Shown: positions 8,069 through 33,053 of the stretch, piece after piece
Numbering within the stretch: position 1 is the stretch's first letter
Layout of the letters: every line of letters starts with the position of its first letter
From: an uncultured Candidatus Saccharibacteria bacterium
GTDB lineage: Bacteria; Patescibacteriota; Minisyncoccia; Phycocordibacterales; DATDWN01
NCBI GenBank assembly: GCA_964391455.1
Contig: CAYMJQ010000001.1
Span: 15,865 to 79,864 of the forward strand
Direction: 5' to 3'
Length of the DNA: 64,000 nucleotides
Made by a program: the position numbers and the translations under genes
Notes under the pieces: generated by a model
The model's database searches: none
Told to the model about the DNA's origin: nothing
What the model saw: only the letters and a program-made list of their open reading frames with translations

Positions 8069-8076
8069 AAAATATT

Positions 8077-16612: not shown

Positions 16613-16648
16613 CTTTATAAAAAAAATTAATAATGTTAGATTATTTAA

Positions 16649-17860: not shown

Positions 17861-17897
17861 TTTTATGTTAAAAAGTATCGTATAATTTAGTAATTAT

Positions 17898-19970: not shown

Positions 19971-20021
19971 TTTATATTTGACTTTTTATTTTAGCATTGT
20001 ATTTTATATTAGGAGGTGTTC

Positions 20022-20105
20022 ATGGTTGTTTGTGTCGCATTAGGGATCGTTTTTTGTTTTTTTGTCTTTTGTGGGTTTATGACTTTCAAAACCACAAGAG
20101 CGTAG
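20022..20105 (+). CDS. Candidate 27-aa hydrophobic micro-protein (MVVCVALGIVFCFFVFCGFMTFKTTRA) with a perfect SD
   Basis: AGGAGG sits 5 nt upstream of the ATG. A possible TTGACT promoter lies at 19978. An intrinsic terminator follows at 20116-20146. The overlapping 77-aa ORF (19997-20230) reads through the SD and looks spurious. Confidence 0.3.
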   Translation: MVVCVALGIVFCFFVFCGFMTFKTTRA

Positions 20106-20115
20106 TCTTGGTATG

Positions 20116-20146
20116 CCGGCGGACCTTTCAGGTTTGCCGGTTTTCG
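20116..20146 (+). terminator. Intrinsic terminator (CCGGCGGACC-TTTCA-GGTTTGCCGG followed by TTTTCG) between uvrB and uvrA
   Basis: A 10-bp stem (with G-U pairs) and a U-run were read directly. Confidence 0.55.
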
Positions 20147-20226
20147 TTTATATGTTACTATATTGTTCTATATATAACCCATAGGGCCAACGGAGGTCTA
20201 TTTTTTCGTATAAATCCAAACAAAAA

Positions 20227-22866
20227 ATGAAACAAAAAAATCAACAAAGTAATACTGATTTAATAGTTGTAAAAGGGGCGCGGACTCATAATCTAAAAAA
20301 TATAACTGTGGAGATGCCTAGAAACAAAATGATTGTTTTTACCGGGCTTTCTGGTTCAGGTAAGTCTTCTCTTGCTTTTGATACTATTTTCGCTGAAGGC
20401 CAACGTAGATATGTTGAGTCTCTTTCTTCATATGCAAGACAGTTTTTGCGACAAATGCAAAAACCAGATGTAGATGAAATACAAGGGTTGTCTCCTGCAA
20501 TTTCCATAGACCAGAAATCTAGATCAAATAACCCGCGTTCAACTGTAGCTACTATAACTGAAATATATGATTACCTGCGTATTATGTATTCTCGCGTGGG
20601 GCATCCGCACTGCCTTGTTTGTGGAGATGAAATTACGAAACTATCCAATGAAGAGATAAAAAATTTTGTTTTAGAGAAAATAAAAAATGTAAAAGTTTCT
20701 GGAGCAAAAATACCATTACCTTTTTATGTAGAAATATATGCACCGTTGGTAAAAGGTAGAAAAGGGGAGTACTACCAATTACTTTATGATTTGCTAGGGA
20801 AAGGCTATTCATATGTTCTTGTAGATGGAGTTAAAAAATCTTTGCGAGACAGAGTGGAACTTTCAAAAAACAAAAGACACAACATAGATGTTTTAGTTGA
20901 TAGTATTTCTATTTTAGATTTCAAAACAGATATAAAAAGTAGTGAAGAAAGATTGGCTGAGAGTTTGGAGAGAGCACTTAACGAATCAGATGGTCAAGTT
21001 AGAATTATTTTTAACGATTTTACACCGAAGCGAAGCGAAGGCAATAAACAATCTGAAGTTGAAGCCCCGACTGAATTTTTTATGTCTTCAAAACTTTCCT
21101 GTCCGAAAGATGGATATTCTTATCCAGAAGTAGAGCCGAGACTTTTTTCTTTTAACTCTCCTTATGGTGCTTGTCCAGAATGTAATGGTCTAGGTACTAG
21201 ACATTTTTTCGGAAAAGAAGTTTGTCCAAAGTGTAAAGGGGCTCGTCTTAGAGAAGAAGCCTTGCATGTTTTGATTGGCAAAAAAAACATAGTGGAATTA
21301 ACCTCTATGTCCATAAAAGATGCTTTTGATTTTCTTAATACAATAAAACTATCTGAAAGAGAAAAAAATATTTCTAAAGTGGTGATGAGAGAAATAGAAG
21401 CAAGACTTTTGTTTATGATAAATGTCGGGATTGAGTATCTATCTTTAGACAGAAGAGCTCATACTTTGTCAGGAGGTGAAGCGCAACGTATCCGCCTAGC
21501 TTCACAGCTTGGTTCTGGTTTGGTTGGCGCTCTATATGTTTTAGATGAGCCCACAATAGGTCTACATAGTAGAGATAATGACAGACTAATCCAAACTCTG
21601 TTAGATTTGAAAAATCTAGGCAACACTATTATTGTTGTAGAACATGATGAAGATACTATATTTGCATCTGATTACATAGTAGATATTGGCCCCGGTGCTG
21701 GAGTTCATGGAGGTAATGTCGTAGTTTCTGGGCAATTAGATGAACTTTTAACTGCAAAAACAAATAAATCGGGTTCTATAACTCTGGATTACTTGCGTGG
21801 AGACAAGATAGTTGAAGTTCCAGAAAATCGTAGGGAAGAAGAAAGAGGTAAGATACAAATACGTGGAGGGAAAATATTTAATATTAAAAATCTAAATGTT
21901 GATATTCCGCTTTCAAAGTTTATTGTAGTTACCGGAGTTTCTGGTTCAGGTAAGTCTTCTTTTGTTTATGAAATACTACATAGGAATTTACAAGCTCGTT
22001 TTGAAAGAAAATATCGCTCCGCGGAAATATATAATTGTAAATCTTTTACTGGTACGGAATATTTGGGTAGAGCAATACTTATTGACCAATCACCTATAGG
22101 AAGAACCCCGAGAAGCAATCCAGCAACATATACTGGGGCATGGACTTTTATTAGAGATTTATTTGCAGAGACTTCTGAAGCTCGTGCTCGTGGCTGGAAA
22201 AGCAGTAGATTTTCTTTCAACGTTAAAGGTGGAAGATGCGAGACTTGTCAGGGTAATGGGATGATAGAGGTAGAAATGCATTTTCTCCCAACTGTTTATG
22301 TGCCTTGTGATGTTTGTAAAGGAAAAAGATTTATGAAAGAAACTTTGGAGGTTCACTATAAAAAGAAAAATATTCATGATGTGTTAAAAATGACCATAGA
22401 AGAAGCTTTGGATTTTTTTCAAGATATACCGGCTATATATGAAAGATTAAAATGTTTAGATGATGTTGGTCTTGGTTATCTTGAGTTGGGTCAGTCAGCG
22501 ACAACTCTTTCAGGGGGAGAGGCCCAAAGAGTTAAAATATCTTCTGAACTTTATAGGCCACATTTACAAAAAACAATTTATCTTTTAGACGAACCAACTA
22601 TAGGTTTACACTATGAAGATGTTAAAAAATTAATTGAAATACTGCAAAAACTGGTAAGTAAAGGAAATACTGTTTTAGTTATTGAACACAATATGGATGT
22701 TATAAAATCAGCAGATTATATTTTAGATATTGGTCCGGAAGGTGGGGAAGGTGGTGGTCAACTTATAGCAAAAGGGACCCCAGAAGAGGTCGCCAATAAT
22801 GAAAAAAGTCATACTGGAAAGTATTTAAAAAAGGCGCTTAAACAGTATAGGGCTTATAGAAAATAG
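20227..22866 (+). CDS. uvrA: Excinuclease ABC subunit A
   Basis: It has two ABC ATPase modules (GLSGSGKSSLAFDT; GVSGSGKSSFVYE), Zn fingers and LSGGEAQR signature motifs. At 879 aa it is somewhat shorter than typical. Confidence 0.95.
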   Translation: MKQKNQQSNTDLIVVKGARTHNLKNITVEMPRNKMIVFTGLSGSGKSSLAFDTIFAEGQRRYVESLSSYARQFLRQMQKPDVDEIQGLSPAISIDQKSRSNNPRSTVATITEIYDYLRIMYSRVGHPHCLVCGDEITKLSNEEIKNFVLEKIKNVKVSGAKIPLPFYVEIYAPLVKGRKGEYYQLLYDLLGKGYSYVLVDGVKKSLRDRVELSKNKRHNIDVLVDSISILDFKTDIKSSEERLAESLERALNESDGQVRIIFNDFTPKRSEGNKQSEVEAPTEFFMSSKLSCPKDGYSYPEVEPRLFSFNSPYGACPECNGLGTRHFFGKEVCPKCKGARLREEALHVLIGKKNIVELTSMSIKDAFDFLNTIKLSEREKNISKVVMREIEARLLFMINVGIEYLSLDRRAHTLSGGEAQRIRLASQLGSGLVGALYVLDEPTIGLHSRDNDRLIQTLLDLKNLGNTIIVVEHDEDTIFASDYIVDIGPGAGVHGGNVVVSGQLDELLTAKTNKSGSITLDYLRGDKIVEVPENRREEERGKIQIRGGKIFNIKNLNVDIPLSKFIVVTGVSGSGKSSFVYEILHRNLQARFERKYRSAEIYNCKSFTGTEYLGRAILIDQSPIGRTPRSNPATYTGAWTFIRDLFAETSEARARGWKSSRFSFNVKGGRCETCQGNGMIEVEMHFLPTVYVPCDVCKGKRFMKETLEVHYKKKNIHDVLKMTIEEALDFFQDIPAIYERLKCLDDVGLGYLELGQSATTLSGGEAQRVKISSELYRPHLQKTIYLLDEPTIGLHYEDVKKLIEILQKLVSKGNTVLVIEHNMDVIKSADYILDIGPEGGEGGGQLIAKGTPEEVANNEKSHTGKYLKKALKQYRAYRK

Positions 22867-22870
22867 TTTA

Positions 22871-22907
22871 TTAAAATGAAAACTGGCGCCGAAACGAATC
22901 GACGCCA
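22871..22907 (-). terminator. Hairpin (CTGGCG...CGCCAG) with a minus-strand U-tract. It terminates the small minus-strand ORF and also sits just past the uvrA stop
   Basis: Read directly. Confidence 0.45.
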
Positions 22908-22919
22908 GCTACGGGAACC

Positions 22920-23063
22920 TCACAGATAGCCCTCCTTTTTGAACGGATCCACCTCGTCCACGAGGTGGAAAAATTCGCTGATCGGCTCCACCACCACCTC
23001 TTTCACGAGGTAGATGGCGCCGACTCCAATCAGAACGAGTGCCGGAAGATTGTATTCCAGCAT
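22920..23063 (-). CDS. Candidate 47-aa membrane peptide (MLEYNLPALVLIGVGAIYLVKEVVVEPISEFFHLVDEVDPFKKEGYL) in a high-GC patch
   Basis: GGAGGTG SD sits 4 nt upstream of the ATG at 23063. It has one predicted TM helix. Local GC is about 55%. The 66-aa ORF listed at 22909-23109 is in another frame and looks spurious. Confidence 0.3.
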   Translation of the reverse strand: MLEYNLPALVLIGVGAIYLVKEVVVEPISEFFHLVDEVDPFKKEGYL

Positions 23064-23081
23064 TGACACCTCCACTACATA

Positions 23082-24416
23082 TTGTATAATAAAATAGATA
23101 AAAAGTCAAGCATTTTTGTGGATAAGAGCATAATCAAAAAAGAAATATCTAATTTACCTAGTAGTCCGGGAGTCTATATTTTTAAACGTGGAAATAAAAT
23201 TTTATACATTGGTAAAGCAACATCACTGAAAGATAGGGTTAGGAGTTATTTTAACAAAGATGTTGTAAACAACAGATCTCCTTTGATCTATAGAATGTTG
23301 CAATCGTTTAATAAAATAGAGCACATTAAAACCGATTCTGTTCTTGAGGCTCTGGTTCTAGAAGCACATTTAATAAAAAAACATCAACCAGAAGCCAATA
23401 TAAAAGAAAAAGATAATAAAAGTTTTAATTTTGTTGTCATAACAAAGGAAGATTTTCCTAGGGTTTTGATAATGCGAGGCAGGGATTTATTAAACAATCA
23501 TTTTTTAAATAAAAATGATTATGAAATATCGTATTCTTTCGGCCCATTTCCTAACGGATCACAATTGAAAGAGGCTATGAAAATAGTACGCAAAATGTTT
23601 CCTTTTAGAGATAAATGTGAACCTTGCAAAGTTATAGAAAATAAAGAGTTAATTTCTTTCGATATATCGAAAGAAATTAATAAGAACAATAGTACAAAGT
23701 ATTGTAAACCATGTTTTAATCGACAGATAGGTTTATGCCCGGGTGTTTGTACTGGAGAGGTTTCAAAAGAAGATTATGCTAAACAGATAAACAATATAAA
23801 ACTTTTTTTTGAAGGAAACAAAAAACAACTTTTGAAAAACCTTGAGAAACAAATGCAAGGTTTCGCTAAACAAAAAAAATTTGAAGAAGCTAACATTACT
23901 AAACGTACATTGTATACACTAAACCATATTCAAGATGTTGCGCTTATCAAAGAAGAAAGTTTAATAAACTATAGTAACAATTTTCGCATTGAATCTTACG
24001 ACATAGCTCACATGTCTGGGAAAAATGTTGTTGGAGTTATGACTGTTATAGAAAATGGTGAAATATCAAAACAAGAGTATAGAAAATTTAAGATAAAAGA
24101 GGATCCTGGAATAAATGATACTAAAGCTTTGTCTGAGGTTTTGACCCGTAGATTTGCCCATATAGAATGGAGATTTCCAGATTTAATAGTTGTAGATGGT
24201 GGGGTTGCTCAAAAAAGAGTAGTAGAAAGGGTTTTGAAAGAAAATCATCAAAAAATCCCAGTAGTTTCCGTAGTTAAAGACGAAAGACATAAACCAAAAG
24301 AGATTTTGGGAGATAAAAAATGGCTTAAGTTTGAAAGGGAAATATTACTTTCAAATGCAGAGGCTCATAGATATGCTATAAATTTTCACAAACAGTTAAG
24401 AAGAAAGATTTTTTAA
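23082..24416 (+). CDS. uvrC: Excinuclease ABC subunit C (short form lacking the C-terminal HhH2 region)
   Basis: The GIY-YIG domain (LPSSPGVYIFKRGNKILYIGKATSLKDR...YF) and the RNase-H-like endonuclease region (ESYDIAHMSGKN...VVDGG) are present. The start is uncertain: TTG at 23082 or GTG near 23118. Confidence 0.8.
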   Translation: MYNKIDKKSSIFVDKSIIKKEISNLPSSPGVYIFKRGNKILYIGKATSLKDRVRSYFNKDVVNNRSPLIYRMLQSFNKIEHIKTDSVLEALVLEAHLIKKHQPEANIKEKDNKSFNFVVITKEDFPRVLIMRGRDLLNNHFLNKNDYEISYSFGPFPNGSQLKEAMKIVRKMFPFRDKCEPCKVIENKELISFDISKEINKNNSTKYCKPCFNRQIGLCPGVCTGEVSKEDYAKQINNIKLFFEGNKKQLLKNLEKQMQGFAKQKKFEEANITKRTLYTLNHIQDVALIKEESLINYSNNFRIESYDIAHMSGKNVVGVMTVIENGEISKQEYRKFKIKEDPGINDTKALSEVLTRRFAHIEWRFPDLIVVDGGVAQKRVVERVLKENHQKIPVVSVVKDERHKPKEILGDKKWLKFEREILLSNAEAHRYAINFHKQLRRKIF

Positions 24417-24560
24417 TAGTATTTATCCACATTGTTTATTGTTTTTAAATCTAGTATATTTGTAACTTGCGTGTACAGGTTACACGCAGATGTTCTTTCT
24501 ATTTTTCGGCCGAAAAATTTTCTGGGACCCTTTTTTGTGGGTCCAACGATGTTTCAATCG

Positions 24561-24602
24561 AGCACTCGCACACGATAGTAATTCTTGCGAGTGCTTTTGT
24601 GT
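24561..24602 (+). terminator. Intrinsic terminator after uvrC (AGCACTCGCA...TGCGAGTGCT followed by TTTTG)
   Basis: A 10-bp perfect stem plus a U-run. Two further hairpins precede it at 24463-24485 and 24522-24546. Confidence 0.6.
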
Positions 24603-24624
24603 AATATTTTGATATAATATTTTT

Positions 24625-25602
24625 ATGTACAATATACCTGACTCACTTAGAATAGGAGTAATAAGAGGCGGACCTTCATCTGAGTACGATGTTTCTTTAA
24701 AAACAGGCGGACATGTATTAGAAATTCTTTCTGAGACCCATAAACCAATTGATATTTTTATTTCAAAAGATGGAGTGTGGCATATGTATGGCCTAGAGAA
24801 AACCCCAAGTCAGATTTTAAAAAATATAGATGTTGTTTGGAATGGTCTTCATGGGGAATTTGGTGAAGATGGAAAGGTTCAAGAAATACTACATCATCAT
24901 GGAGTTAAGTTTACTGGTTCGCACAAATATCCTTCTTCCTTGGCTATGAATAAGTGGTTGACCAAAGAGCATTTAAAACCATTTGGTATAAAAACTCCAG
25001 TATCTCATTTAGTAAGACAGACAGATTATTTAAAAGAAAAATCAAAAGAAATATTTTTAAATATTCCGCATCCACTTATAGTCAAACCGGTGAAAGGAGG
25101 ATCTTCTGTGGGTATAAAAATAGTTTCTAATTATAGAGATTTATATAAAGCTCTTTATGATATTTTATCTTCGGGCAGTGATGCCTTGGTTGAGGAATAT
25201 ATTAAAGGTAAAGAAGCAACAGTTGGAGTTATAGATAATTTTAGAAATCAAGATATTTATATTCTTCCACCTATAGAAATAAGACATAAAAGCGATAGTG
25301 GATTTTTTGATTTTGATTCTAAATACAATGGAGAAACAGAAGAAATATGTCCTGGGAATTTTAGTGAGAAAGAAAAAAAAGAAATAGAAAGAATTGCTGC
25401 AACCGTGCATAAAAATTTAGGTTTGAGACATTATTCTAGGTCGGATTTTATAGTTTCTCCAAAAAGAGGGATTTATTTTTTGGAAGTAAATACATTGCCG
25501 GGCTTAACAAAAGAATCCTTAATGCCAAAAGCTTTAAATTCTGTCGGCTCTTCTATAAAAGATTTTATTTATCATATATTAGATTTAACTTTGAGGTATT
25601 AA
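24625..25602 (+). CDS. ddl: D-alanine--D-alanine ligase
   Basis: It has an ATP-grasp fold. EYDVSLKTG, VKPVKGGSSVGI and the C-terminal FLEVNTLPGLT are present. Confidence 0.9.
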   Translation: MYNIPDSLRIGVIRGGPSSEYDVSLKTGGHVLEILSETHKPIDIFISKDGVWHMYGLEKTPSQILKNIDVVWNGLHGEFGEDGKVQEILHHHGVKFTGSHKYPSSLAMNKWLTKEHLKPFGIKTPVSHLVRQTDYLKEKSKEIFLNIPHPLIVKPVKGGSSVGIKIVSNYRDLYKALYDILSSGSDALVEEYIKGKEATVGVIDNFRNQDIYILPPIEIRHKSDSGFFDFDSKYNGETEEICPGNFSEKEKKEIERIAATVHKNLGLRHYSRSDFIVSPKRGIYFLEVNTLPGLTKESLMPKALNSVGSSIKDFIYHILDLTLRY

Positions 25603-25605
25603 AAA

Positions 25606-25641
25606 GCCTAACGAGAGAGGTCAACTTCTCTCTCGTTAGGC
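25606..25641. terminator. Perfect 14-bp palindromic hairpin (GCCTAACGAGAGAG-loop-CTCTCTCGTTAGGC) between the convergent ddl and the minus-strand GC-rich ORF
   Basis: Read directly. The A/T run is on the upstream side, so it acts as a terminator chiefly for the minus-strand gene. Confidence 0.55.
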
Positions 25642-25646
25642 CTGCG

Positions 25647-26012
25647 TTACCTCGCTACAAAGTAGCGAATCGGAAGATGCGCCCTTTTGTCTCTGGGTAC
25701 ATACTCATCTTCCAAAAATTCTTCAATGGGGATTTGACCTGTTACGGTCGAGGCCGGCTGGACGTACGAAAAGAACACAACATTACCAGAATACCAAGGA
25801 TTCTTCCTTACTGGATTCTGGCAAAGCTGTATTACTGTAGCACCGGCGGTCCCAATTTCTGGGACATTGGTGTTGTGAAGACCAATCTGACATTTGCTTG
25901 TTTCAATCTGAACAAGCTGTTTGCCGGATACGAGATCACTTTGGGTGACAGGGAAGAATCCCTGTCTCTTCATGTGTTCCCGCAGTCTTTTTATCTTGAA
26001 ATAACTCGGCAT
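25647..26012 (-). CDS. Hypothetical 121-aa protein encoded in a GC-elevated segment directly downstream of tRNA-Ala(GGC)
   Basis: A strong SD (AAGGAGG) sits 7 nt upstream of the ATG at 26012. There is no signal peptide and no recognisable domain. GC is about 48%. The plus-strand 119-aa ORF over the same DNA lacks an SD. Confidence 0.35.
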   Translation of the reverse strand: MPSYFKIKRLREHMKRQGFFPVTQSDLVSGKQLVQIETSKCQIGLHNTNVPEIGTAGATVIQLCQNPVRKNPWYSGNVVFFSYVQPASTVTGQIPIEEFLEDEYVPRDKRAHLPIRYFVAR

Positions 26013-26080
26013 CTCTATCCTCCTTTTGATCTGTAAGGTATAGAAGCATTTATTATGTGTTTTGTCTATGATTTAAACAG

Positions 26081-26151
26081 TGGACCTAGGGAGAATCGAA
26101 CTCCCGCTACATCCATGCCATGGATATGTTATACCACTTAACTATAGGCCC
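26081..26151 (-). tRNA. tRNA-Ala (anticodon GGC)
   Basis: The cloverleaf was folded by eye: acceptor GGGCCUA/UAGGUCC with the G3-U70 Ala identity pair, anticodon loop AUGGCAU, T-loop UUCGAUU and discriminator A. CCA is not encoded. Confidence 0.8.
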
Positions 26152-26275
26152 GAATATTTTAGAAGATTATAAATAATTTGTAAGATAATTCAAAATCTGG
26201 TAATCTTTTCTCTGGGGGTTATGGTCACATATATTTTGCTCGTCGACCTCGTCGTCTCGTCCATTTCAGTCTTAT

Positions 26276-26399
26276 GGGCCCGTAGCTCATCTGGTAGAGT
26301 GAGATTGGGTAAGGGAACCAATCGCAAGATCGGAGGCTGGCCGGGCCGAGGTGGGGTCGCAAAATTTTTAACAAAAAATTATTGTGACCATCATTTGCA
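26276..26399 (+). pseudogene. Chimeric tRNA-Ala fragment: an exact copy of nt 1-24 of the downstream tRNA-Ala(UGC), an 89-nt GC-rich unrelated insert, then an 11-nt copy of the anticodon-arm segment (CATCATTTGCA). There is no 3' half
   Basis: There are direct sequence identities to 26429-26452 and 26455-26465. The fragment cannot fold into a complete tRNA. Confidence 0.5.
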
Positions 26400-26428
26400 C
26401 AAATAAAATGTTCTAACAATTTAATACT

Positions 26429-26501
26429 GGGCCCGTAGCTCATCTGGTAGAGCACATCATTTGCAATGATGGGGTGGCAGGTTCGAGTCCTGTCGGGTCC
26501 A
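26429..26501 (+). tRNA. tRNA-Ala (anticodon UGC)
   Basis: Acceptor GGGCCCG/CGGGUCC with G3-U70, D-arm GCUCAUCUGGUAGAGC, anticodon loop UUUGCAA, T-arm GCAGG-UUCGAGU-CCUGU. It is 73 nt long and CCA is not encoded. Confidence 0.9.
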
Positions 26502-26505
26502 CAGA

Positions 26506-26533
26506 AAAAAGTCCGCCTTGTGCGGATTTTTTC
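26506..26533 (+). terminator. Intrinsic terminator after tRNA-Ala(UGC) (GTCCGC-CTTGT-GCGGAT followed by T6)
   Basis: Read directly. Confidence 0.65.
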
Positions 26534-26667
26534 GTGACCCGAAGTAAAGCGAAGCTTTACGTCAGGACTCTAACGACGGAGCGACTTTTGATTTAGCAAA
26601 ATCAAAACGCGAGTCGGTGCCCAGACCAAAAATTTCTGACGAGAAATTTTTGAGTCGAGGGAGAGAT

Positions 26668-26683
26668 TCCTGTCGGGTCCACA
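26668..26683 (+). repeat. 16-nt exact direct repeat of the 3' end of tRNA-Ala(UGC) (TCCTGTCGGGTCCACA; about 20 nt with one mismatch), 165 bp downstream of the gene. It is followed by its own terminator at 26696-26720
   Basis: Identity with 26488-26503 was read directly. The downstream hairpin is CTCTGG-TTAGTT-CCAGAG followed by T6. Confidence 0.6.
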
Positions 26684-26742
26684 AAATACAAAAAACTCTG
26701 GTTAGTTCCAGAGTTTTTTATTTTAGATTAGATAATCTATAT

Positions 26743-27645
26743 CTATCTTATCTTCTTCCAAGAAGTTCCACTGTCTATACTTTTGTAAATACTGTTTTTA
26801 TTAGTTAGTGCATATACAATCCCTGATTCTGATTTACTGAAAGAAATATACAATATAATTTCTCCATCAAATGTGTATTGTATTTTTTGCCAGGTGATGC
26901 CACCGTCAATACTTTTCCCCATTCCGCCAATTCTTTCAGAGAAGGTGAGAGAATAAGTATTGGTTGGGTCAATAGAAAAAACAGTCACAAAACCTCCTTC
27001 AAGTTGAGAAGATAAACTTTGCCATGTCTCTCCTCCATCTTTACTTATTTTTATTCCATCTTGAGTTGAAGCATAAAGAGTGTTTTCGTATTCAAGATCA
27101 GATGAAAGTGATATAGGAGCAATATTGCTTTTTGTATATTCCCATGAAACACCTCCATTTATACTTCGTTGAAGTCTTCCTGCAAAAAAGCCATAGATTA
27201 TATTTGGGTTGATTTGACTAATGGTCATTGCGTGGAAATCTACGGGTCCTTGAAGACCGTCAGATACTCGTATCCATGAAATACCTCCATCCGTTGTCTT
27301 TTGAAACCCAATATTCCTACCCAGTGATGAGTGTCCGCTACTAAAGAAGGTTTGTGCTTCTGTTGGGTGTGAAGTAAATGACATCAAATCATATTGTGTA
27401 TTGCCAATTCTGTATAAATCTTTGTCATCCATCAGAATAAATAAACCTTCGTGAGTCGCAATGTAGACTTTGTTTGGGTCAGTTATATCAACAGCTATGC
27501 CATGTGAATGACTAAAAGACGATACTGGATTGAGTTCATCTTTGGTGTTGTTATTGGGTGCTGATTTCTCTTTTGGGTTAAAGAGTAAAATTAATCCGAA
27601 GAGAAGTAGGATAGAAATTGCTATGAGTAAATAGTTTTTTTGCAT
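26743..27645 (-). CDS. Secreted BNR/Asp-box repeat protein (sialidase/Ycf48-like beta-propeller)
   Basis: It has an N-terminal signal/TM segment. Five SxDxGxTW-type repeats are present (SKDGGETWQ, SIDGGITWQ, TTDGGISWI, SINGGVSWE, SIDSGTSWK). Confidence 0.6.
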   Translation of the reverse strand: MQKNYLLIAISILLLFGLILLFNPKEKSAPNNNTKDELNPVSSFSHSHGIAVDITDPNKVYIATHEGLFILMDDKDLYRIGNTQYDLMSFTSHPTEAQTFFSSGHSSLGRNIGFQKTTDGGISWIRVSDGLQGPVDFHAMTISQINPNIIYGFFAGRLQRSINGGVSWEYTKSNIAPISLSSDLEYENTLYASTQDGIKISKDGGETWQSLSSQLEGGFVTVFSIDPTNTYSLTFSERIGGMGKSIDGGITWQKIQYTFDGEIILYISFSKSESGIVYALTNKNSIYKSIDSGTSWKKIR

Positions 27646-27652
27646 AATATTA

Positions 27653-28045
27653 TTAATTGAACCATTCCTTACGCCACTCTTTCATCATTTCTATCTCTTT
27701 TGTTTGGGCTGTTATAATGTCATTACCTAGTTTTATAAGTTCAGGCCTTTTTGTGTTTTTTAGAAGTGTTTGTGACATTTCAATCGCTCCTTCATGGTGG
27801 ATTATCATTCCACTCAAAAATGCTAAATCTAGTTCATCTCCTGTCTTTCCAGATAAACCCATCATCATTCCATTCATTGCACCGTGCATACCAACAAAAC
27901 CATCCACTTCTTTATTCTGAGAATAATATTCATCCATCATTCTATAAGGGCGATATGTGTTTGTGCCAGTGTAGTAACCTATTGTGAGGCCAAGTATAAG
28001 TGTTAATAAAACAATAATTAAGAAATTATTTTTTGTATTTTCCAT
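27653..28045 (-). CDS. DUF305-family secreted protein
   Basis: It has a signal peptide plus LDLAFLSGMIIHHEGAIEMSQ and ELIKLGNDIITAQTKEIEMMKEW. Confidence 0.55.
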   Translation of the reverse strand: MENTKNNFLIIVLLTLILGLTIGYYTGTNTYRPYRMMDEYYSQNKEVDGFVGMHGAMNGMMMGLSGKTGDELDLAFLSGMIIHHEGAIEMSQTLLKNTKRPELIKLGNDIITAQTKEIEMMKEWRKEWFN

Positions 28046-28093
28046 ATATTTTAATAGTTATTTTGTTAAATAAAATCAAAAAACAAAAAACTA

Positions 28094-28483
28094 TTATGGT
28101 GCACGCGGGGTTATTGTACTTTTAAGTAAAAAATTTAAAAAAACTATTTTTTTGGTATTAGTAAAATATAAAAACTTTAATTTATAAAAATTATCAGGTG
28201 GGTCAAATAGATGTATTAACCAAAACTTATATAAGACAAGTGAGGTTATTATTAAAATAAAATATAAAAATTTAATTGGTAATGTAATTGACATGTATTG
28301 CCATGAAGTAATGTGCTCGAAAATATTCATTTGACATAAAACCATGCTACCAATCATAAAAGGACAATTATCAATTGGATTGTGGTGGTTATGCTCGGAT
28401 AAAGATAGTAGAGTAAATAATCCAAGATACAAGTAACTAACAAAGATAAAAGAAGTTAGTAATTTAATAAATACGGGTTTCAT
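28094..28483 (-). CDS. Hypothetical integral membrane protein
   Basis: It is a hydrophobic 129-aa ORF with no recognisable motif. Confidence 0.3.
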   Translation of the reverse strand: MKPVFIKLLTSFIFVSYLYLGLFTLLSLSEHNHHNPIDNCPFMIGSMVLCQMNIFEHITSWQYMSITLPIKFLYFILIITSLVLYKFWLIHLFDPPDNFYKLKFLYFTNTKKIVFLNFLLKSTITPRAP

Positions 28484-28541
28484 AGATTTATGATAACATA
28501 AAATGTTATACTTTTTAAGTTAATAAATATACTAAAAATAT

Positions 28542-28985
28542 ATGCATAAATCTCAATACAAAAGGCTACTGATAATGGTTATTTTATCTTTTATATCAAT
28601 GTATTTTCTTATGTTTTCAATGGTAGATTCAATTGATAATATTTACATAGGAATAAATCAGTTTTATATGGCGGGGCTTATGACAGCATCAATGATTGTA
28701 ATAGAACTTTTTATTATGAGTTCAATGTATGTTGATAGAAAGAAAAATATAATGATATTTATTACCAGTGTAATTGCTTTATTTGGTTTTTTCTTTGCCA
28801 TAAGAAATCAAAACTTAATTTATGATGATGAGTTTTTGAAATCAATGATACCTCATCATGCGGGAGCTATTCTTATGTGTCAGAGAGCAAAATTACAAGA
28901 TGCTGAGATAAAAGAACTTTGTAGTAATATTATTTTAGGGCAACAGGTTGAAGTTGATTTTATGAAAAATAAATTAAATAAATAA
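28542..28985 (+). CDS. DUF305-family membrane protein
   Basis: It has TM helices plus the MIPHHAGAILMCQRA...ELCSNIILGQQVEVDFMK motif, paralogous to 27653-28045. Confidence 0.5.
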   Translation: MHKSQYKRLLIMVILSFISMYFLMFSMVDSIDNIYIGINQFYMAGLMTASMIVIELFIMSSMYVDRKKNIMIFITSVIALFGFFFAIRNQNLIYDDEFLKSMIPHHAGAILMCQRAKLQDAEIKELCSNIILGQQVEVDFMKNKLNK

Positions 28986-28989
28986 TAAT

Positions 28990-29172
28990 ATGACATATCA
29001 AGAATTTGTGAAAGAATTAATAAAGCGTTTTGGTGAAGAAAAAGGTATTCTTATGGCTCTTAGAGCAGAAGTTGGATTTTTAAGAAAATTTATTGAAGAT
29101 CAAAATTTTCCAAATTTCAAAATAAAACAAGAAGAAATGATTAAGGATTTTTTAGATAGACATCCAAATTAA
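28990..29172 (+). CDS. Small hypothetical protein (60 aa)
   Basis: ORF only. It is tightly spaced after the DUF305 gene. Confidence 0.25.
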   Translation: MTYQEFVKELIKRFGEEKGILMALRAEVGFLRKFIEDQNFPNFKIKQEEMIKDFLDRHPN

Positions 29173-29270
29173 CTTATAGTTTTTGTGCTAGATTTTTTCT
29201 GAGAGACTTAATGAAAACTTGATTGGATAGGTTTTTTAAAATAAATCATAAATTTTGATATAATCAATCT

Positions 29271-30161
29271 ATGTCGGTTAAAAATTATCTAATTCTTATT
29301 ATTTTCTGTATAGTTTTTCTTTTTGTCTTTAGTTTTTTTGATATTGAAAAAATAAAAAATATAGATAATAAAATTCCAGCATTAGTTCTAGATTCTTTAC
29401 AAGAAGTCTCTAAAAAAGAAATTTATATTGGAGATGATTTGCTTGGTCGAGCAGAACTTTCTTATGCTGGTGGCACAGAAGGTCGCCACAAAAACATAGA
29501 ATTAGGAATATCTAGGATAAATGGTTTAGTTTTGCAACCTGGAGAAGAATTTTCCTTCAAAAAAGCTCTCGGGTCTGTATCTATGGAAGATGGTTTTAGT
29601 GAAGAAAGAATATTTCTTAATGGCGAAGTAACTAAGGGTGTGGGTGGAGGACTTTGTCAGGTTTCTACTTTAATTTTTAGAGCAGCTATGAGCTCAGCTT
29701 TACCAATAACCGAAAGAGCTAATCATAGTTATTCTGTGTCCTATTATGACACAGGTTTGGATGCTACTTACTCCGATCCTGGTCCAGATGTTAAGTTTGT
29801 TAATGACACTCCTAATCCGATAATGATAAAAGGTTGGACAGAAAATCTAAATGCTATATTTGAGATATACGGGACACATGATGGAAGGCTAGCAAGCACA
29901 TCTGAAGTTGTGGTTTCTGATATTAAAGATATTTTACCAACTAAATATGTATGGGTGCCAGAATTAAAGGAGGGTCAAACTAAATGTATGAACACTCCAC
30001 AAATAGGATATACAGCAAATGTTAAATACGATATTATTTATCCAAATGGAGAAGTAAAGGAACAAGATTTTGTTTCTAAATACAAACCTCTTCAGAGAAT
30101 TTGTTATATCGTTGGAGATGAAATAAAAAATTTTGATATAAATAAAACTTTAAATAATTAA
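29271..30161 (+). CDS. VanW-family protein
   Basis: There is an N-terminal TM. The VanW core is GGGLCQVSTLIFRAAMSSALPITERANHSYSVSYYDTGLDATYSDPGPDVKFVNDTPNPIMIKGW. Confidence 0.8.
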   Translation: MSVKNYLILIIFCIVFLFVFSFFDIEKIKNIDNKIPALVLDSLQEVSKKEIYIGDDLLGRAELSYAGGTEGRHKNIELGISRINGLVLQPGEEFSFKKALGSVSMEDGFSEERIFLNGEVTKGVGGGLCQVSTLIFRAAMSSALPITERANHSYSVSYYDTGLDATYSDPGPDVKFVNDTPNPIMIKGWTENLNAIFEIYGTHDGRLASTSEVVVSDIKDILPTKYVWVPELKEGQTKCMNTPQIGYTANVKYDIIYPNGEVKEQDFVSKYKPLQRICYIVGDEIKNFDINKTLNN

Positions 30162-30170
30162 TTAAAAAAC

Positions 30171-30737
30171 ATGTTGCCAGAATTTATAACATTAAAAACT
30201 TTATACTTAATAGCACATGTTTTCGGTGCAATTTTGGGTGCAGGTGGAGCTTTTGTCAGTGATGCAATGTTTTTTAAAACAATAAAAGATGGGGTTATAG
30301 AAAGCACTGAATTAAGTTTTATGAAGCTTGGAGGGAAAATAGTTTGGACTGGACTGGCTATCCTTGTGATATCTGGAATTCTTTTGTTCCTCACAAATCC
30401 AGAGGGCTATATGAACTCATCTAAATTTTTAGTAAAAGTAACTATCGTTGCAGTTATTATAATTAATGGAATTATATTTCACTCAATTCATTTACCACAC
30501 ATTAAAAAACATTTAGGATTGAACTTTAGGGAATCAGAGAGTTTTCTAAAAAAATCTTCTTTTATTATGGTATCTGGCGCTATATCTATGGTTTCTTGGA
30601 TATCTACAGTTATACTAGGGATGTTAAAACAGGTTCCTTATACTTATACAGAGATATTTAGCGTTTATTTAATACTTATTTTCGGAGCAATATTTACATC
30701 TTTATTTTTAAAAAAGAGGATCTTGAAATTAAATTAG
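30171..30737 (+). CDS. Hypothetical integral membrane protein (4-5 TM)
   Basis: Judged from the hydrophobicity pattern only. Confidence 0.35.
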   Translation: MLPEFITLKTLYLIAHVFGAILGAGGAFVSDAMFFKTIKDGVIESTELSFMKLGGKIVWTGLAILVISGILLFLTNPEGYMNSSKFLVKVTIVAVIIINGIIFHSIHLPHIKKHLGLNFRESESFLKKSSFIMVSGAISMVSWISTVILGMLKQVPYTYTEIFSVYLILIFGAIFTSLFLKKRILKLN

Positions 30738-30749
30738 AAAAAGTTTATA

Positions 30750-31220
30750 TTGTTTCCTTATTTTATGGGCTGGGAAAAAGAATTTACAAAATGGGTAGGT
30801 TCAAGGAATTCTGTCTTTATACACACAGTCTTTTTTGTTGTGATGTTTTCTCTTATATTTTTAGGTTTTGAAGCTGACACGATACTTCTTGTCCTAACTA
30901 CAGTTGTTTCTTTAGAGGCGATATATCTTGCTATTTTTATACAAATGACTGTAAATGAAAATACTAAAAGTCTAGAAATAGTAGAGGAAGACCTAGAAGG
31001 AATTGTAGAAGATGTTGGGGAGATTTCCCATGATATAGATGAAATTCAGCATGATGTTGATGAAATAGCTGAAGATGTTGAAGAAATTCAGCATGATGTT
31101 GATGAAATAGAAAAAGAAAATGAAACCCAGGATGTTTCTAGTGAAAAAGATAGAAAAAAATTGGAGGAAATTGAACTTGTGCTAAAAAAAGTTTTGAAAG
31201 AAATAGAGGGTTTGAAATAA
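30750..31220 (+). CDS. DUF1003-like membrane protein with an acidic repeat tail (DIDEIQHDVDEIAEDVEEIQHDVDEIE)
   Basis: It has two TM helices followed by tandem acidic 9-10-mer repeats. Confidence 0.35.
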   Translation: MFPYFMGWEKEFTKWVGSRNSVFIHTVFFVVMFSLIFLGFEADTILLVLTTVVSLEAIYLAIFIQMTVNENTKSLEIVEEDLEGIVEDVGEISHDIDEIQHDVDEIAEDVEEIQHDVDEIEKENETQDVSSEKDRKKLEEIELVLKKVLKEIEGLK

Positions 31221-31243
31221 ACATTTAAAAATGTTAAATTAGT

Positions 31244-31825
31244 TTGATGAAAAAAACCTTATATTTTATTGCTGGTGTTATTGTCTTGGTAATTGCGGGA
31301 TACTATTTTTTAAGAGTAGATAAATCTGAAATATCAAGAGATTACACAACTTATAGTAATTCAGAACTTGGAATACAGTTTGATTATCGTGCTGGCCCAA
31401 ATGGATATGTTTTGGAAGAGAGGATTTTGTCTCAAACAGAAAATTTAATTAAAGTTATTACTCTTATATCAACAGAAGATGCGGGAAGAATTCCTCCTGA
31501 AGGAGGTGAGGGTCCGGCTGTCATAGCGATAAGTGTTTTTAATAATAACAAAAAACAATTTCCAGAAATTTGGGCCAATGAAAATATTCAATATAGTAAT
31601 ATAAATCTTAAATTTGGAGATGTTATGGAAGATGTTGTAGGAGGAGCAAATGCTATACGATACATGGCAGATGGACTTTATGCTTCAGAAAATGTGGTAG
31701 TTACTCATGGAGAAAATATATATGTTATAACTGGTCAATTTATGACAGAAGATTCACAAATTCGTAGAGACTTTTCTCCACTAATAGAATCGATTGATTT
31801 TATTCCTAAACCAAATCAGCAGTAG
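31244..31825 (+). CDS. Hypothetical secreted/membrane-anchored protein
   Basis: It has an N-terminal TM/signal segment and no recognisable domain. Confidence 0.35.
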   Translation: MMKKTLYFIAGVIVLVIAGYYFLRVDKSEISRDYTTYSNSELGIQFDYRAGPNGYVLEERILSQTENLIKVITLISTEDAGRIPPEGGEGPAVIAISVFNNNKKQFPEIWANENIQYSNINLKFGDVMEDVVGGANAIRYMADGLYASENVVVTHGENIYVITGQFMTEDSQIRRDFSPLIESIDFIPKPNQQ

Positions 31826-32046
31826 TTTTTACTTGATTTTATTACAATATTTTGTTATAATATAAGGGTGTGAGGCACCTTGAAATAAGGTTAACAGATT
31901 GGAACCTCTTTTCATTTTTTCTGATCAATCTTGGTCAAAAAAAATGAGGGGGGCAGTCTGGTAATTAGCCAGAATACTGTACTTAGTCAGTACAGTATTT
32001 AAGTCCTTCTCGTAACAAAAAATAGTATGAAAATACTAAAAGTTGT

Positions 32047-32226
32047 AGCGCTGGGACTTCTAATTATCATGCTGAAGTTCCTAACCCCGAAAATTTTTTC
32101 GGGCATCGAGAACACCCTCCTAGTGTTCTTTGAGACAATTCAAACTGTGTTAGGTCACAGTAAAGATTCCATGACAGCTGGAATTTTTCCTAACCTGCCA
32201 CAGTAACAAACAGAACCGGTCGCTTT
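32047..32226 (+). CDS. Candidate 59-aa small membrane protein (MKILKVVALGLLIIMLKF...)
   Basis: The ORF is just below the 60-aa cutoff of the supplied track. It has an N-terminal hydrophobic helix and a weak RBS. It ends at a bidirectional terminator hairpin at 32233-32262. Confidence 0.2.
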
Positions 32227-32232
32227 GGCGAA

Positions 32233-32262
32233 CCGGTTTTTGTATTTGTAAACTAAGACTGT
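32233..32262. terminator. Bidirectional terminator hairpin (GAACCGGTCGC-TTTG-GCGAACCGGTT) shared by the convergent small ORF and the MltG-like gene
   Basis: An 11-bp stem was read directly, with T-runs on both sides. Confidence 0.5.
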
Positions 32263-33053
32263 AAATATTTTTTAATGTTAGCTTTATGTTCTTCGTATGT
32301 TCTGGCACAGTGAATTTTTCTTTTTTTATCGTGTATGTAGAACATACAGTTTGTTTTTTGCGGGTTATAGGCGGCTTCAATAGCAGAAAGTCCTGGGTTG
32401 GCTATCGGACTAGGAGGAAGCCCTGTTTCTTTATATGTATTATAAGGAGAATTTATTCCTTTATCACTCGGTTCTACTTGTCCCCACCATCCATCTTCTT
32501 CATTTCCTTTAGCATATTGTAGTGTCGCATCCATCTGAAGTTTCATTCCGGCCCAGATTCTGTTCCAGATTACACCTGATATAAGTCTCATATCATGCTT
32601 GCCGGCAGCTTCTCGTTGTATTATGGACGCTATTTTTAAAGCAGTATCTTCGTTTATTAATTCTTTTCTTTTTTGTTTCCTTACTGCAGAAGTTTCTCTT
32701 AAGAATTGTTTTAGCATTACTGCAGTCACTCCCATAGGGTCTTCATCTTTATGTAAAAGATATGTTTTTGGAAAGTATTTTCCTTCTAAATTATTTGTAT
32801 TAAGGGCTAGGTGAGCGTTTATAAAACTATTTTTTTCTTTATCATCCCATCCTAATTTTGAGCCAACTATTTCTGCTATTTCCTCTTTTCTTAATCCTTC
32901 TTGTATACGTACTATTTTTACTGAAGGATTGGCAAGATTTTGGTAAAAAGAAAGTGTGCCTAGTAAAGAAAGGTCTATATTGTGGTAACTTAACATTCCA
33001 ATAAGAGTTCCTACAGACAAAGTAAAGAATATTATAGTTGTTCTCCAAGACAT
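32253..33053 (-). CDS. mltG: Endolytic murein transglycosylase MltG/YceG family
   Basis: There is an N-terminal TM. The YceG-family signature GLPPSPIANPGLSAIEAAYNP is present, together with upstream conserved blocks. Confidence 0.7.
   Translation of the reverse strand: MSWRTTIIFFTLSVGTLIGMLSYHNIDLSLLGTLSFYQNLANPSVKIVRIQEGLRKEEIAEIVGSKLGWDDKEKNSFINAHLALNTNNLEGKYFPKTYLLHKDEDPMGVTAVMLKQFLRETSAVRKQKRKELINEDTALKIASIIQREAAGKHDMRLISGVIWNRIWAGMKLQMDATLQYAKGNEEDGWWGQVEPSDKGINSPYNTYKETGLPPSPIANPGLSAIEAAYNPQKTNCMFYIHDKKRKIHCARTYEEHKANIKKYLQS

Follow-up and report, generated by a model that had tools for sequence, protein, structure and literature searches.

A structured repeat family at tRNA gene ends in Patescibacteria, a possible class of non-autonomous mobile elements

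Features of the tRNA-Ala(UGC) locus

The window, that is, the whole stretch of 64,000 nt analysed here, carries an intact tRNA-Ala(UGC) gene in which G3:U70 is present and CCA is not encoded, and a tRNA-Ala(GGC) gene on the opposite strand (Table 1). The GC-rich 121-aa ORF that adjoins the latter gave no Pfam match and no homologue besides itself. The tRNA-Ala(UGC) gene is accompanied on both sides by exact copies of its own ends. Upstream, TGGGCCCGTAGCTCATCTGGTAGAG covers the acceptor 5′ strand and the D arm and forms the left flank of an upstream element, called U, after which CATCATTTGCA repeats part of the anticodon arm. Downstream, TCCTGTCGGGTCCACA comprises the T-stem 3′ strand, the acceptor 3′ strand, the discriminator and the next 2 nt, and its similarity extends into the flanks (20/22 nt). 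When each 200-nt flank was shuffled 1000 times, no exact match to the tRNA exceeded 10 nt, versus 24 and 15–16 nt observed, which bears out the original prediction that tRNA fragments flank this gene. The 11-nt anticodon-arm piece taken alone is borderline against chance; its order and position are correct. These fragments are the junctions of U and of a downstream element, D, both members of an undescribed Parcubacteria/Patescibacteria family of small hairpin-rich repeats without coding content.

Table 1. Coordinates of features in the window
Feature	Position	Strand	Evidence
tRNA-Ala(GGC)	26080-26151	-	ARAGORN, Rfam
Inverted, degenerate remnant with an internal deletion, similar to hairpin 3 and its lead-in (tentative)	26221-26275	-	Inverted repeats
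TGGGCCCGTAGCTCATCTGGTAGAG, 25 nt exact: tRNA-Ala(UGC) positions 1-24 and preceding base	26275-26299 (+) and 26428-26452		
91-nt 'long' unit, upstream copy U, three hairpins	26299-26389	+	
CATCATTTGCA, 11 nt exact: tRNA-Ala(UGC) positions 27-37	26389-26399 and 26455-26465		
Partial tRNA copy resumes (26389-26399), then AT-rich tail to intact gene	26389-26428	+	
tRNA-Ala(UGC), intact	26429-26502	+	ARAGORN; Rfam RF00005, 63.9 bits
TCCTGTCGGGTCCACA, 16 nt exact: 3′ end of tRNA-Ala(UGC) locus	26488-26503 and 26668-26683 (+)		
First terminator-like hairpin (~26509-26529), stem GTCCGC/GCGGAT 26511-26526, A-tract and T-tract	26503-26533	+	By eye and fold
Body of element D	26534-26667	+	Fold, nhmmer, R1
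Second terminator-like hairpin, bidirectional	26690-26719	Both	Terminator scan
Third family member, not at a tRNA (module ~59590-59684)	59546-59726	+	R1, direct repeat

The upstream insert (26300-26388, 89 nt) is raised in G+C and corresponds to a discrete unit of 91 nt that takes the place of tRNA positions 25-26 in the partial copy. The unit opens with GTGAG, hairpin 1 (26304-26322) and CGCAAG (26323-26328), and continues with a 3-bp helix, P2, bearing a GGA/GA internal loop, with hairpin 2 and with a long AT-rich hairpin 3 (26355-26389) that ends in GTGACC. The covariance model R1, built without the window sequence, scores 55.4 bits on U at 26327-26389 (E = 8e-13). The same layout of a partial tRNA copy and a unit occurs in three other metagenome loci, L013 (two copies), L014 and L125, each with its own tRNA sequence; in these and in L104 the copy resumes at position 21-28 and continues through a decayed anticodon arm. 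A promoter scan called a promoter-like site, TTGTGA-16-TAAAAT, at 26382-26409 (9/12 matches) and no equivalent in L013 or L014; the tail of U may hold a promoter. Upstream of tRNA-Ala(GGC), 26221-26251 pairs as inverted repeats with 26347-26391 at 74–82%; the segment that contains it is tentatively assigned to the family as a remnant, and R1 makes no call on it.

The 165 nt between the tRNA-Ala(UGC) end and the 3′ copy (26503-26667) hold no ORF. They begin with a terminator-like hairpin, which is the start of D. The terminator scan called its stem (TCCGC/GCGGA, 26512-26526) on the minus strand only, and equivalent hairpins follow the tRNA in L001, L002, L011 and L014. In the body of D, GTGACCCGA (26534-26542) repeats the tRNA 3′ end in inverted orientation and, beyond hairpin A (26545-26559), TCAGGACTC (26562-26570) is the complement of the T-arm 3′ strand. 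A diverged family core (26573-26652) follows, which consists of the helix CGAC/GTCG, a GGA/GA loop, hairpin 2 and hairpin 3 (26619-26661). In the MFE structure, the 3′ copy pairs with GTGACCCGA and TCAGGACTC and thereby closes the element; the RNA fold of 26503-26725 has an energy of -90 kcal/mol (z = -8.3). R1 aligns the P2/GGA/GA motif of this diverged core and scores it at 13.7 bits (E = 0.15). Homologues of D were found by nhmmer in L014, L001, L011 and L002 (E from 1e-49 to 3.5e-12) and after tRNA-Val in L018. The 3′ copy is followed by a second hairpin, as originally predicted; it is probably the native terminator, common to the convergent BNR gene (26743-27645, minus), and D may supply a replacement for it after the tRNA.

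Two known motifs were discarded. The CTGACGA in hairpin 3 of D, reminiscent of a hammerhead, is part of a hairpin loop, is not constant among copies and is without an Rfam match, and the strand lengths of the GNA/GA loop are wrong for a K-turn.

In the third member in the window, the module is bracketed by a duplicated segment, the rpsI stop codon with its whole intrinsic terminator (59546-59589 and 59682-59726). Here the direct repeat is exact over 40 nt (59546-59585 and 59682-59721) and is extended by (T)ACTC; R1 scores 17.5 bits at 59594-59657 (E = 0.014), and the fold has z = -3.5.

The surroundings of tRNA-Ala(UGC) vary among relatives, in agreement with the earlier description of the locus as a hotspot. 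In most of them the gene follows ddl after ~40-250 nt with nothing between, versus a gap of 826 nt in the window. L002 and L011 lack element U; the window, L014 (which also has a decayed remnant of it) and L125 have one copy, and L013 has two in tandem. Element D occurs in the window and in L001, L002, L003, L011, L014, L018 and L020 (two copies) and is missing from L005, L012, L019 and L125. Alignment for the empty site, which had been proposed as a check, thus places both empty and filled loci among the ddl-linked tRNA-Ala genes, in a comparison between species and not strains, and since content varies among relatives the locus does not show the uniform arrangement that would have refuted the original reading; the inserts do, for their part, lack similarity to known mobile DNA. 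No near-identical strain pair differing by one element only was found, so that no insertion event was caught directly; exact-protein look-ups for strain variants returned one 2.6-kb contig ending at the repeat and, for the BNR protein, none. In L001, the closest relative, whose sequence stops within the tRNA gene, an inversion breaks at the end of D. Between the window and L001, D is 95.9% identical, and ddl is 75% identical in DNA, 69% in protein and 59% at synonymous third positions.

A family of covarying hairpins at gene ends

A pattern derived from hairpin 3 of the unit matched 82 metagenome contigs, which come from Rifle, Hainich and similar groundwater series, and, in IMG/VR, no viral contig (0 matches). 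The 460 kb of loci retrieved contain 96 matches to the family, several loci having two or three. Frequencies are biased because the loci were retrieved through the element's own pattern, and it is with this bias that 61 of 87 copies have a tRNA gene within 400 nt on the same strand, a single copy having tRNAs on the opposite strand only. The tRNAs near copies cover 14 amino-acid specificities, and one copy follows a tmRNA. Copies also occur away from tRNA genes, at the rpsI terminator and between protein genes.

The family core of ~64 nt comprises the 3-bp helix, a GNA/GA internal loop, a variable hairpin and the long AT-rich hairpin ending in GTGACC. Whole units measure ~95-185 nt; the discrete 91-nt unit is one subfamily, and other subfamilies as well as tandem and partial copies were seen among the retrieved loci. 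Over 78 distinct copies the pairing holds in 97.2% of cells, and of the 22 pairs, 19 show changes on both sides; none of 500 shuffles scored as high, and slid controls were 30–61% paired. The 91-nt unit, of which eight copies of exactly this length occur in at least five different flanks, behaves alike in a MAFFT-only alignment, with 94.6% of cells paired and 14/28 pairs changed on both sides (0/500 shuffles as high). G-U pairs are tolerated in the covarying stems, and loop length ranges from 3 to 8 nt or more among the hairpins.

Copies lie within a partial duplicate of whichever gene end they adjoin, so one intact copy of the gene always survives. Upstream copies are flanked by 10-25 nt of the gene 5′ end and downstream copies by 12-43 nt of the 3′ end, the whole range of flank duplicates being 0 to 43 nt, with none at some copies. 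Exact 3′-end copies of 15-31 nt directly follow hairpin 3 at Leu, Trp, Thr, Tyr, Pro and Ser tRNAs; at 12-31 nt, such copies close downstream elements also at Asp and Gly tRNAs and at one tmRNA. On one contig, tRNA-Asp and tRNA-Thr are each provided with their own matching end copy. An inverted gene-end copy is often present too and closes the element into a stem. Outward from the tRNA the layout is always the same: real end, antisense, core, sense copy. Upstream copies have the element inside the duplicated segment and not at its edge, and some of the 5′-end copies include 8-11 nt of untranscribed-looking leader.

The family is absent from Rfam 15 and from phage and plasmid databases. In Rfam 15, no part of the window apart from the two tRNAs scores above threshold, nothing credible appears over 26276-26720 at E ≤ 10, and no family, including T-box, group I intron and self-cleaving ribozymes, covers the canonical copies in 13 other loci. 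A search of the open-access literature by topic and by element sequence strings returned nothing relevant to the family.

Possible origins of the family

The chances appear about even that these copies are non-autonomous, structure-dependent interspersed elements of a new family, which on insertion duplicate the end of the gene that they adjoin. Such elements would be mobile or recently mobile. The folded single strand would be recognised by an enzyme supplied in trans, and insertion would be duplicative, proceeding either by Campbell/att-like recombination or by copy-choice; the element would also carry a replacement terminator in the case of D and perhaps a promoter in that of U. The greater likeness of D than of the host ddl genes between the window and L001 counts for mobility. 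Flank duplicates of 10 to 43 nt, with none at some copies, mean that no classical transposase fits, and the position of the unit inside the duplicated segment of upstream copies means that a simple target-site-duplication model fails. A MITE was rejected, as local flank sequence supplies the closing stems, which differ from site to site, and no fixed-length target-site duplication exists (0 to 43 nt).

The near-identity of D across hosts, the 61:1 strand bias and the RNA-type covariation would also be expected of an RNA that works for the host. The module would then be a cis-acting domain, co-transcribed with the tRNA, that serves processing, termination, insulation or stability, or acts as a conformational switch in which the antisense segment pairs with either the real tRNA end or the adjacent decoy copy. 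This explanation seems rather unlikely, although it accommodates a good deal: the shared orientation of all but one of the copies with a nearby tRNA, the strong covariation with tolerated G-U pairs, the constant order of real end, antisense, core and sense copy, a D with 96% conservation between hosts whose ddl proteins share 69% identity, and tRNA-derived repeats that stay exact even where the core has diverged, as in the low-scoring D of the window. It has more difficulty with the patchy distribution among close relatives, the tandem copies and decayed remnants, and the copies at non-tRNA sites such as the rpsI terminator or the spaces between protein genes. In addition, D lies beyond the canonical terminator and has, in the scans, no promoter-like site of its own, which argues against a role needing co-transcription, and the leader included in upstream duplicates lies outside the tRNA and so points to duplication at the DNA level and not to RNA mimicry. 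Nor is D a mimic of the acceptor minihelix: read from the sequence, its closing helix lacks G3:U70 and buries the discriminator. A tmRNA-like or giant tRNA-like RNA closed by the fragments was discarded on separate grounds, since ARAGORN and Rfam find no tmRNA in the window and U and D occur independently in other genomes.

The repeats had originally been read as the att signature of a tyrosine integrase, and the upstream insert as foreign DNA in an older disrupted copy of the tRNA. The second part is not enough: the insert is a discrete 91-nt unit of covarying hairpins that recurs at many tRNA types and at non-tRNA sites. Of the first, what survives is that a 3′ repeat starting in the T-loop region brackets variably present DNA; what does not is the link to mobile DNA and to an integrase. 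In its classical form this reading takes the copies for scars of islands or prophages that integrated and were later excised or deleted, leaving att repeats, the module being a surviving attP arm or a miniature cis-mobilisable element. The downstream repeats do run from the T-loop to the gene 3′ end and a few nt beyond; T-loop-type att sites reportedly have this geometry, a repeat from T-loop to gene 3′ end (Williams is said to have described it in 2002). A tmRNA is also a target, a terminator is supplied after the reconstituted tRNA, tandem arrays occur and presence differs among relatives. Against it, the integrase expected nearby was missing within 6-9 kb, Pfam searches of the ORFs in 16649-33053 yielding no integrase, transposase or reverse transcriptase domain, and none of these enzymes lies near any copy examined. 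The inserts proved not to be island or phage remnants either: distant-mode blastn searches of 50,697 phage records and 72,556 plasmid records matched the tRNA only, and IMG/VR offers no similarity. Bracketed cargo, in the form of a larger island or a distant partner of the 3′ copies, was seen in no locus; an apparent far att partner in L084 was rejected, as it amounts to two ORFs that both start with ATGAAAATAAAAAT. Many integrase specificities would be needed for so many tRNAs and a ribosomal-protein terminator, yet the core is near-identical among them. Duplicates of the 5′ end with the unit inside the copy are not expected from att recombination, and covarying stems with loops of 3 to 8 nt or more are unlike double-stranded recombinase core sites. 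Taken as a whole, integrase scars are an improbable source of the family.

Under local rearrangement without transposition, a resident palindrome near highly transcribed genes would trigger template switching during replication, with direct and inverted duplicates of its flanks as the product. The succession of a gene-end segment n, its reverse complement and n again resembles a fold-back product, duplicate length is variable, and the L001 inversion breaks at the end of D; even so, this is a very improbable account, for it leaves unexplained why a near-identical core of 64-91 nt with defined ends recurs at dozens of tRNA types and at non-tRNA sites, and why that core is conserved more than host genes.

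To return to mobile elements, a bolder proposal, which is unlikely but somewhat less so than integrase scars, is that the module is the working part of a self-propagating system of a kind undescribed in bacteria, in which gene ends receive copies of a folded RNA or ssDNA of ~90 nt through a nucleic-acid-templated route, or else that it is an antisense/decoy switch for tRNA maturation in Patescibacteria. The templated route might be template switching by a reverse transcriptase or polymerase at transcript or tRNA ends, or alternatively recombination guided by flank-matching segments, and it would yield direct and inverted target duplicates.

Comparison with known systems

Patescibacteria genomes are tiny and gene-dense and are thought to be poor in repetitive or selfish DNA. 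In them, a structured repeat family is found at the ends of a large share of the tRNA genes without inactivating these genes, which gives bacteria a counterpart of the tRNA 'safe haven' strategy known from eukaryotic retroelements. It also explains contig breaks at tRNA genes in metagenome-assembled genomes and provides an RNA or ssDNA motif of unusually clean covariation that is absent from Rfam. The puzzle is how an element of 64-91 nt gains direct and inverted copies of any gene end that it adjoins; should an enzyme or a templated mechanism be found, it could represent a new type of site-adaptable insertion system.

With the integrative elements of tRNA and tmRNA genes and their miniature derivatives, the family shares a 3′-part repeat from the T-loop, a reconstituted gene with a terminator after it, tandem accretion and patchy presence. 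It differs in having neither integrase nor cargo, in units of only ~95-185 nt, in one core common to many tRNA specificities, in the use of a protein-gene terminator as an additional target, in 5′-end versions with the unit inside the duplicate, and in conserving a covarying single-strand structure instead of double-stranded sites.

REP/BIME, REPIN, Rickettsia palindromic elements, Correia and ERIC are short, non-coding, hairpin-forming, multi-copy and extragenic. Like these repeats, the present family has mosaic subfamilies, is non-autonomous in appearance, often lies just after genes or terminators, and conserves structure more than sequence. Unlike them, it strongly prefers tRNA gene ends, it is flanked by long duplicates of the gene end, both direct and inverted, and its 3-4 hairpins are combined with a conserved GNA/GA loop. 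From the 64 kb of this genome and the short flanks of the others, no RAYT or IS200-like (Y1) gene could be linked to the family. The folded sites of integron attC and of CTX phage resemble it in that a conserved secondary structure with covariation, and not sequence, defines the substrate, in strand specificity and in tandem arrays; the analogy to attC would be mechanistic only, as R/L core motifs, an integron integrase, attI and ORF cassettes are all missing.

Dictyostelium TRE5/TRE3, yeast Ty3 and Neurospora retroplasmid-tRNA chimeras use tRNA flanks as safe landing sites in gene-dense genomes. The family has in common with them flank duplications of varying length and junctions at tRNA ends, but it is bacterial, ~100 nt long and with no reverse transcriptase identified, and it overlaps the gene ends instead of lying tens of bp away.

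Like tRNA introns, whether the group I introns of bacteria or the bulge-helix-bulge introns of archaea, the elements interrupt a tRNA sequence, at the D-loop, at positions 25/26 or at the T-loop. Unlike introns, they do so in copies that are truncated or decayed and stand beside an intact gene, and Rfam finds no group I features. An intron was rejected for the window in particular, where the upstream copy stops at position 37 and lacks the T arm and the acceptor 3′ strand; other upstream copies are likewise decayed. Separately from the family, a true group I intron is present in the tRNA-Asn gene of L131.

The tRNA-Ala locus and its repeats

The tRNA fragments surrounding tRNA-Ala(UGC) are real and represent a phenomenon far more general than is visible from the window sequence alone. 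All the repeats of the original prediction are present where it placed them (see table), and the longest exact tRNA match in 1000 shuffles of either flank is 10 nt. The 3′ copy lies 165 nt from the tRNA, and a terminator-like hairpin comes after both tRNA 3′ ends, the real and the copied. The locus is bordered upstream by uvrB, uvrA, uvrC and ddl and downstream by genes for a BNR protein, two DUF305 proteins, VanW and YceG, in a host genome of ~30% G+C.

Features of the tRNA-Ala locus and related sites in the window
Feature	Position	Strand	Remark
tRNA-Ala(GGC)	26080-26151	minus	ARAGORN and Rfam agree
tRNA-Ala(UGC)	26429-26502	plus	ARAGORN and Rfam agree; divergent from tRNA-Ala(GGC)
25-nt repeat	26275-26299 and 26428-26452		tRNA positions 1-24 and the nucleotide preceding the gene
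11-nt repeat	26389-26399 and 26455-26465		tRNA positions 27-37
16-nt repeat	26488-26503 and 26668-26683		from the T-stem 3′ strand through the second nt after the discriminator
Insert	26300-26388		89 nt, raised G+C, separates the two upstream tRNA pieces
Upstream element copy, U	26299-26389		91-nt unit
Downstream element copy, D	26503-26683		
Sequence similar to hairpin 3	26221-26275		5′ of divergent tRNA-Ala(GGC); inverted, internally deleted
GGGCCC palindrome	26276-26281		would serve both strands
Orphan ORF, 121 aa	25647-26012	minus	between ddl and tRNA-Ala(GGC)
Third element copy	59594-59657		between rpsI and grpE; 17.5 bits
Module of the third copy	~59590-59684		
Module with bracketing rpsI-end copies	59546-59726		
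GC-rich ORF	16374-16652		
GC-rich ORF	10149-10466		
GC-rich ORF	34019-34810		collagen-like Gly-Pro repeat protein

A variable hotspot had also been proposed, and comparison bears this out: the distance from ddl to tRNA-Ala(UGC) is ~40-250 nt in most relatives found through Ddl (metagenome-assembled Parcubacteria and other Patescibacteria, the nearest 69% identical in Ddl) versus 826 nt in the window, where a GC-rich orphan ORF and tRNA-Ala(GGC) occupy the gap together with the upstream repeat. Lying in a patch of 45-49% G+C and equipped with a strong Shine-Dalgarno sequence, the orphan ORF is overlapped by an ORF of comparable length on the opposite strand. It has no Pfam match and matches only itself in a collection of 5.8 billion proteins; if it is a gene at all, it is a foreign orphan. 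The other GC-rich ORFs of this AT-rich window contain no Rfam RNA family.

A family of structured elements at gene ends

The order of 5′ fragment, insert and tRNA recurs (blastn, nhmmer) in the relatives' loci L014 and L125, and L013 has it as a tandem pair; the 5′ fragment always matches the tRNA of its own genome. The insert is a discrete unit: eight copies, whose left flanks are of at least five kinds, all measure exactly 91 nt. It opens with GTGAR, hairpin 1 and YGCAAG, continues with a helix of 3 bp, an internal GNA/GA loop and hairpin 2, and closes, after a linker of two bases, with hairpin 3, which is long, AT-rich and ends in GTGACC. Aligned with MAFFT alone, the copies show pairing in 94.6% of cells and changes on both sides in 14 of 28 pairs; covariation extends to all six pairs in hairpin 1 and all four in hairpin 2. 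No shuffle scores as high, and slid controls reach 31-52% pairing. A covariance model of the family core, trained on 16 copies with the window left out, gives the upstream core of the window 55.4 bits (E = 8e-13). The model detects 96 copies across 82 loci, several of which hold two or three; among the 78 distinct copies, 97.2% of cells are paired and 19 of 22 pairs covary.

The same model finds a diverged version of the core within the 165-nt downstream segment, which folds with a z-score of −8.3. D starts with a terminator of its own. The tRNA 3′ end recurs in inverted orientation in the first part of the 165-nt segment, where it pairs with the 16-nt direct copy and so closes the element. 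Homologues lie 3′ of tRNA-Ala in L001, L002, L011 and L014, and 3′ of tRNA-Val in L018. The sequence similar to hairpin 3 beside tRNA-Ala(GGC) may be a decayed third element of the locus.

The hairpin-3 pattern matches 82 metagenome contigs, no shuffled window and no IMG/VR viral contig. A same-strand tRNA called by ARAGORN lies within 400 nt of 61 of 87 copies (Ala, Arg, Asn, Glu, Gly, Ile, Leu, Lys, Pro, Ser, Thr, Trp, Tyr and Val); one copy has tRNAs on the opposite strand only. Several additional copies lie 5′ of a tRNA-Asn that ARAGORN misses because a group I intron interrupts the gene (confirmed in contig L131, Rfam 63.8 bits). In L131 (889-1159, minus strand), as in L089 and L127, the intron occupies the anticodon loop of tRNA-Asn(GTT), with an element copy upstream.

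Downstream copies terminate, 0-6 nt past hairpin 3, in an exact 12-31-nt copy of the 3′ end of that tRNA, starting in the T-loop. Upstream copies open with 10-24 nt of the tRNA 5′ end, the match in some reaching 8-11 nt into the leader. Beyond the unit the tRNA sequence resumes: positions 1-24, unit, 27-37/43 for Ala; 1-17, unit, 21-45 for Ser; 1-12, unit, 14-19 for Asn; and 1-53, unit, 58-63 for Gly. The unit therefore lies inside a partial, decaying second tRNA copy. On the minus strand of L088, tRNA-Asp with an element is followed by a decayed remnant, tRNA-Thr(ggt) with an element and tRNA-Thr(cgt); the two differ in hairpin-3 subfamily, and each ends with its own tRNA's 3′ sequence (20 and 31 nt).

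The third copy in the window, found by the covariance model, is bracketed by two copies of a 40-45-nt segment comprising the rpsI stop codon and entire terminator, exact over 40 nt. The general pattern is thus gene end, element and gene-end copy, and is not specific to tRNA. The native rpsI terminator is part of a long palindrome extending into the end of the coding sequence. Inverted copies of the preceding gene's end surround other non-tRNA copies (L150); in L133 such a copy accompanies the element, and a second terminator, presumably native, is without it. The TTCGAAG at the 5′ end is the element's own, despite its likeness to the T-loop consensus. In L152 (139-609, minus strand) a copy lies immediately 3′ of the tmRNA gene (Rfam 114.5 bits), and the 12-nt GACTCCCCCCCG after hairpin 3 has a second copy 5′ of the core, roughly at the 3′ end of the tmRNA.

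Turnover and nature of the elements

L002 and L011 have no U; the window, L014 (with an additional decayed remnant upstream) and L125 have one copy each, and L013 has two. D is found in the window, L001, L002, L003, L011, L014, L018 and L020 (two copies), and is absent from L005, L012, L019 and L125. L001 has the tRNA-D segment (7982-8181) in inverted orientation to ddl, and D stops there exactly where the 3′ copy is expected. Between the window and L001, D is 95.9% identical versus 75% for ddl DNA and 59% for synonymous third positions, so that the elements are more similar than the host DNA. This patchiness together with high identity is the pattern of horizontally spreading or recently active elements; strong purifying selection could explain the identity, but not the patchiness. 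Assemblies of close relatives end inside the repeats: L001 within the tRNA at the counterpart of window 26449, and the Logan contig L163, from the same species, at about that of window 26283.

The evidence best supports a new family of interspersed elements that are small, non-autonomous and structure-dependent. They would settle at tRNA and tmRNA gene ends and at some terminators, each within a gene-end duplicate that leaves the gene intact. The main rival is a host-functional RNA belonging to tRNA transcription units, as the strand bias and conservation of the copies would suggest; their patchy, multi-copy and decaying distribution, their presence at non-tRNA sites and the position of D beyond a canonical terminator argue against it. 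The length and variability of the duplications do not fit a classical transposase, and the unit of upstream copies lies internally in the duplicate.

The original prediction envisaged foreign DNA and a tyrosine-integrase island. Searches of phage and plasmid databases match nothing but the tRNA itself, no integrase, transposase or reverse transcriptase domain occurs in 16649-33053, and no copy has a distant partner repeat bracketing a larger island. The idea was nonetheless partly right in spirit, since the terminator in D and a possible promoter in U follow the logic of tRNA-targeting integrative elements, although the agent here is a folded module of 64-91 nt rather than an integrase island. 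U may carry this promoter: a promoter scan calls a promoter-like site in the window, but not in L013 or L014. Candidate routes by which the module would gain direct and inverted neighbour copies are a small circular form recombining in the Campbell manner, copy-choice at transcript ends or conserved tRNA motifs, and staggered cleavage around palindromes. That the element conceals either an insertion mechanism of a truly new type, templated or guided, or a switch for tRNA maturation is improbable.

No Rfam 15 family matches the element in the window or in canonical copies, and literature searches by topic and element sequence strings found no relevant description; so far as Rfam 15 and the literature open to searching reach, the element is undescribed. 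Its kind, structured interspersed or miniature integrative elements, is already known as classes. One intergenic region of L150 (2900-3800, minus strand) holds three element copies and a T-box-like GGTGGTACCGCG, which Rfam does not call at its gathering score. A second recurring motif there, TGTCATCC with a hairpin, occurs in both orientations and also beside dispersed copies in L013.
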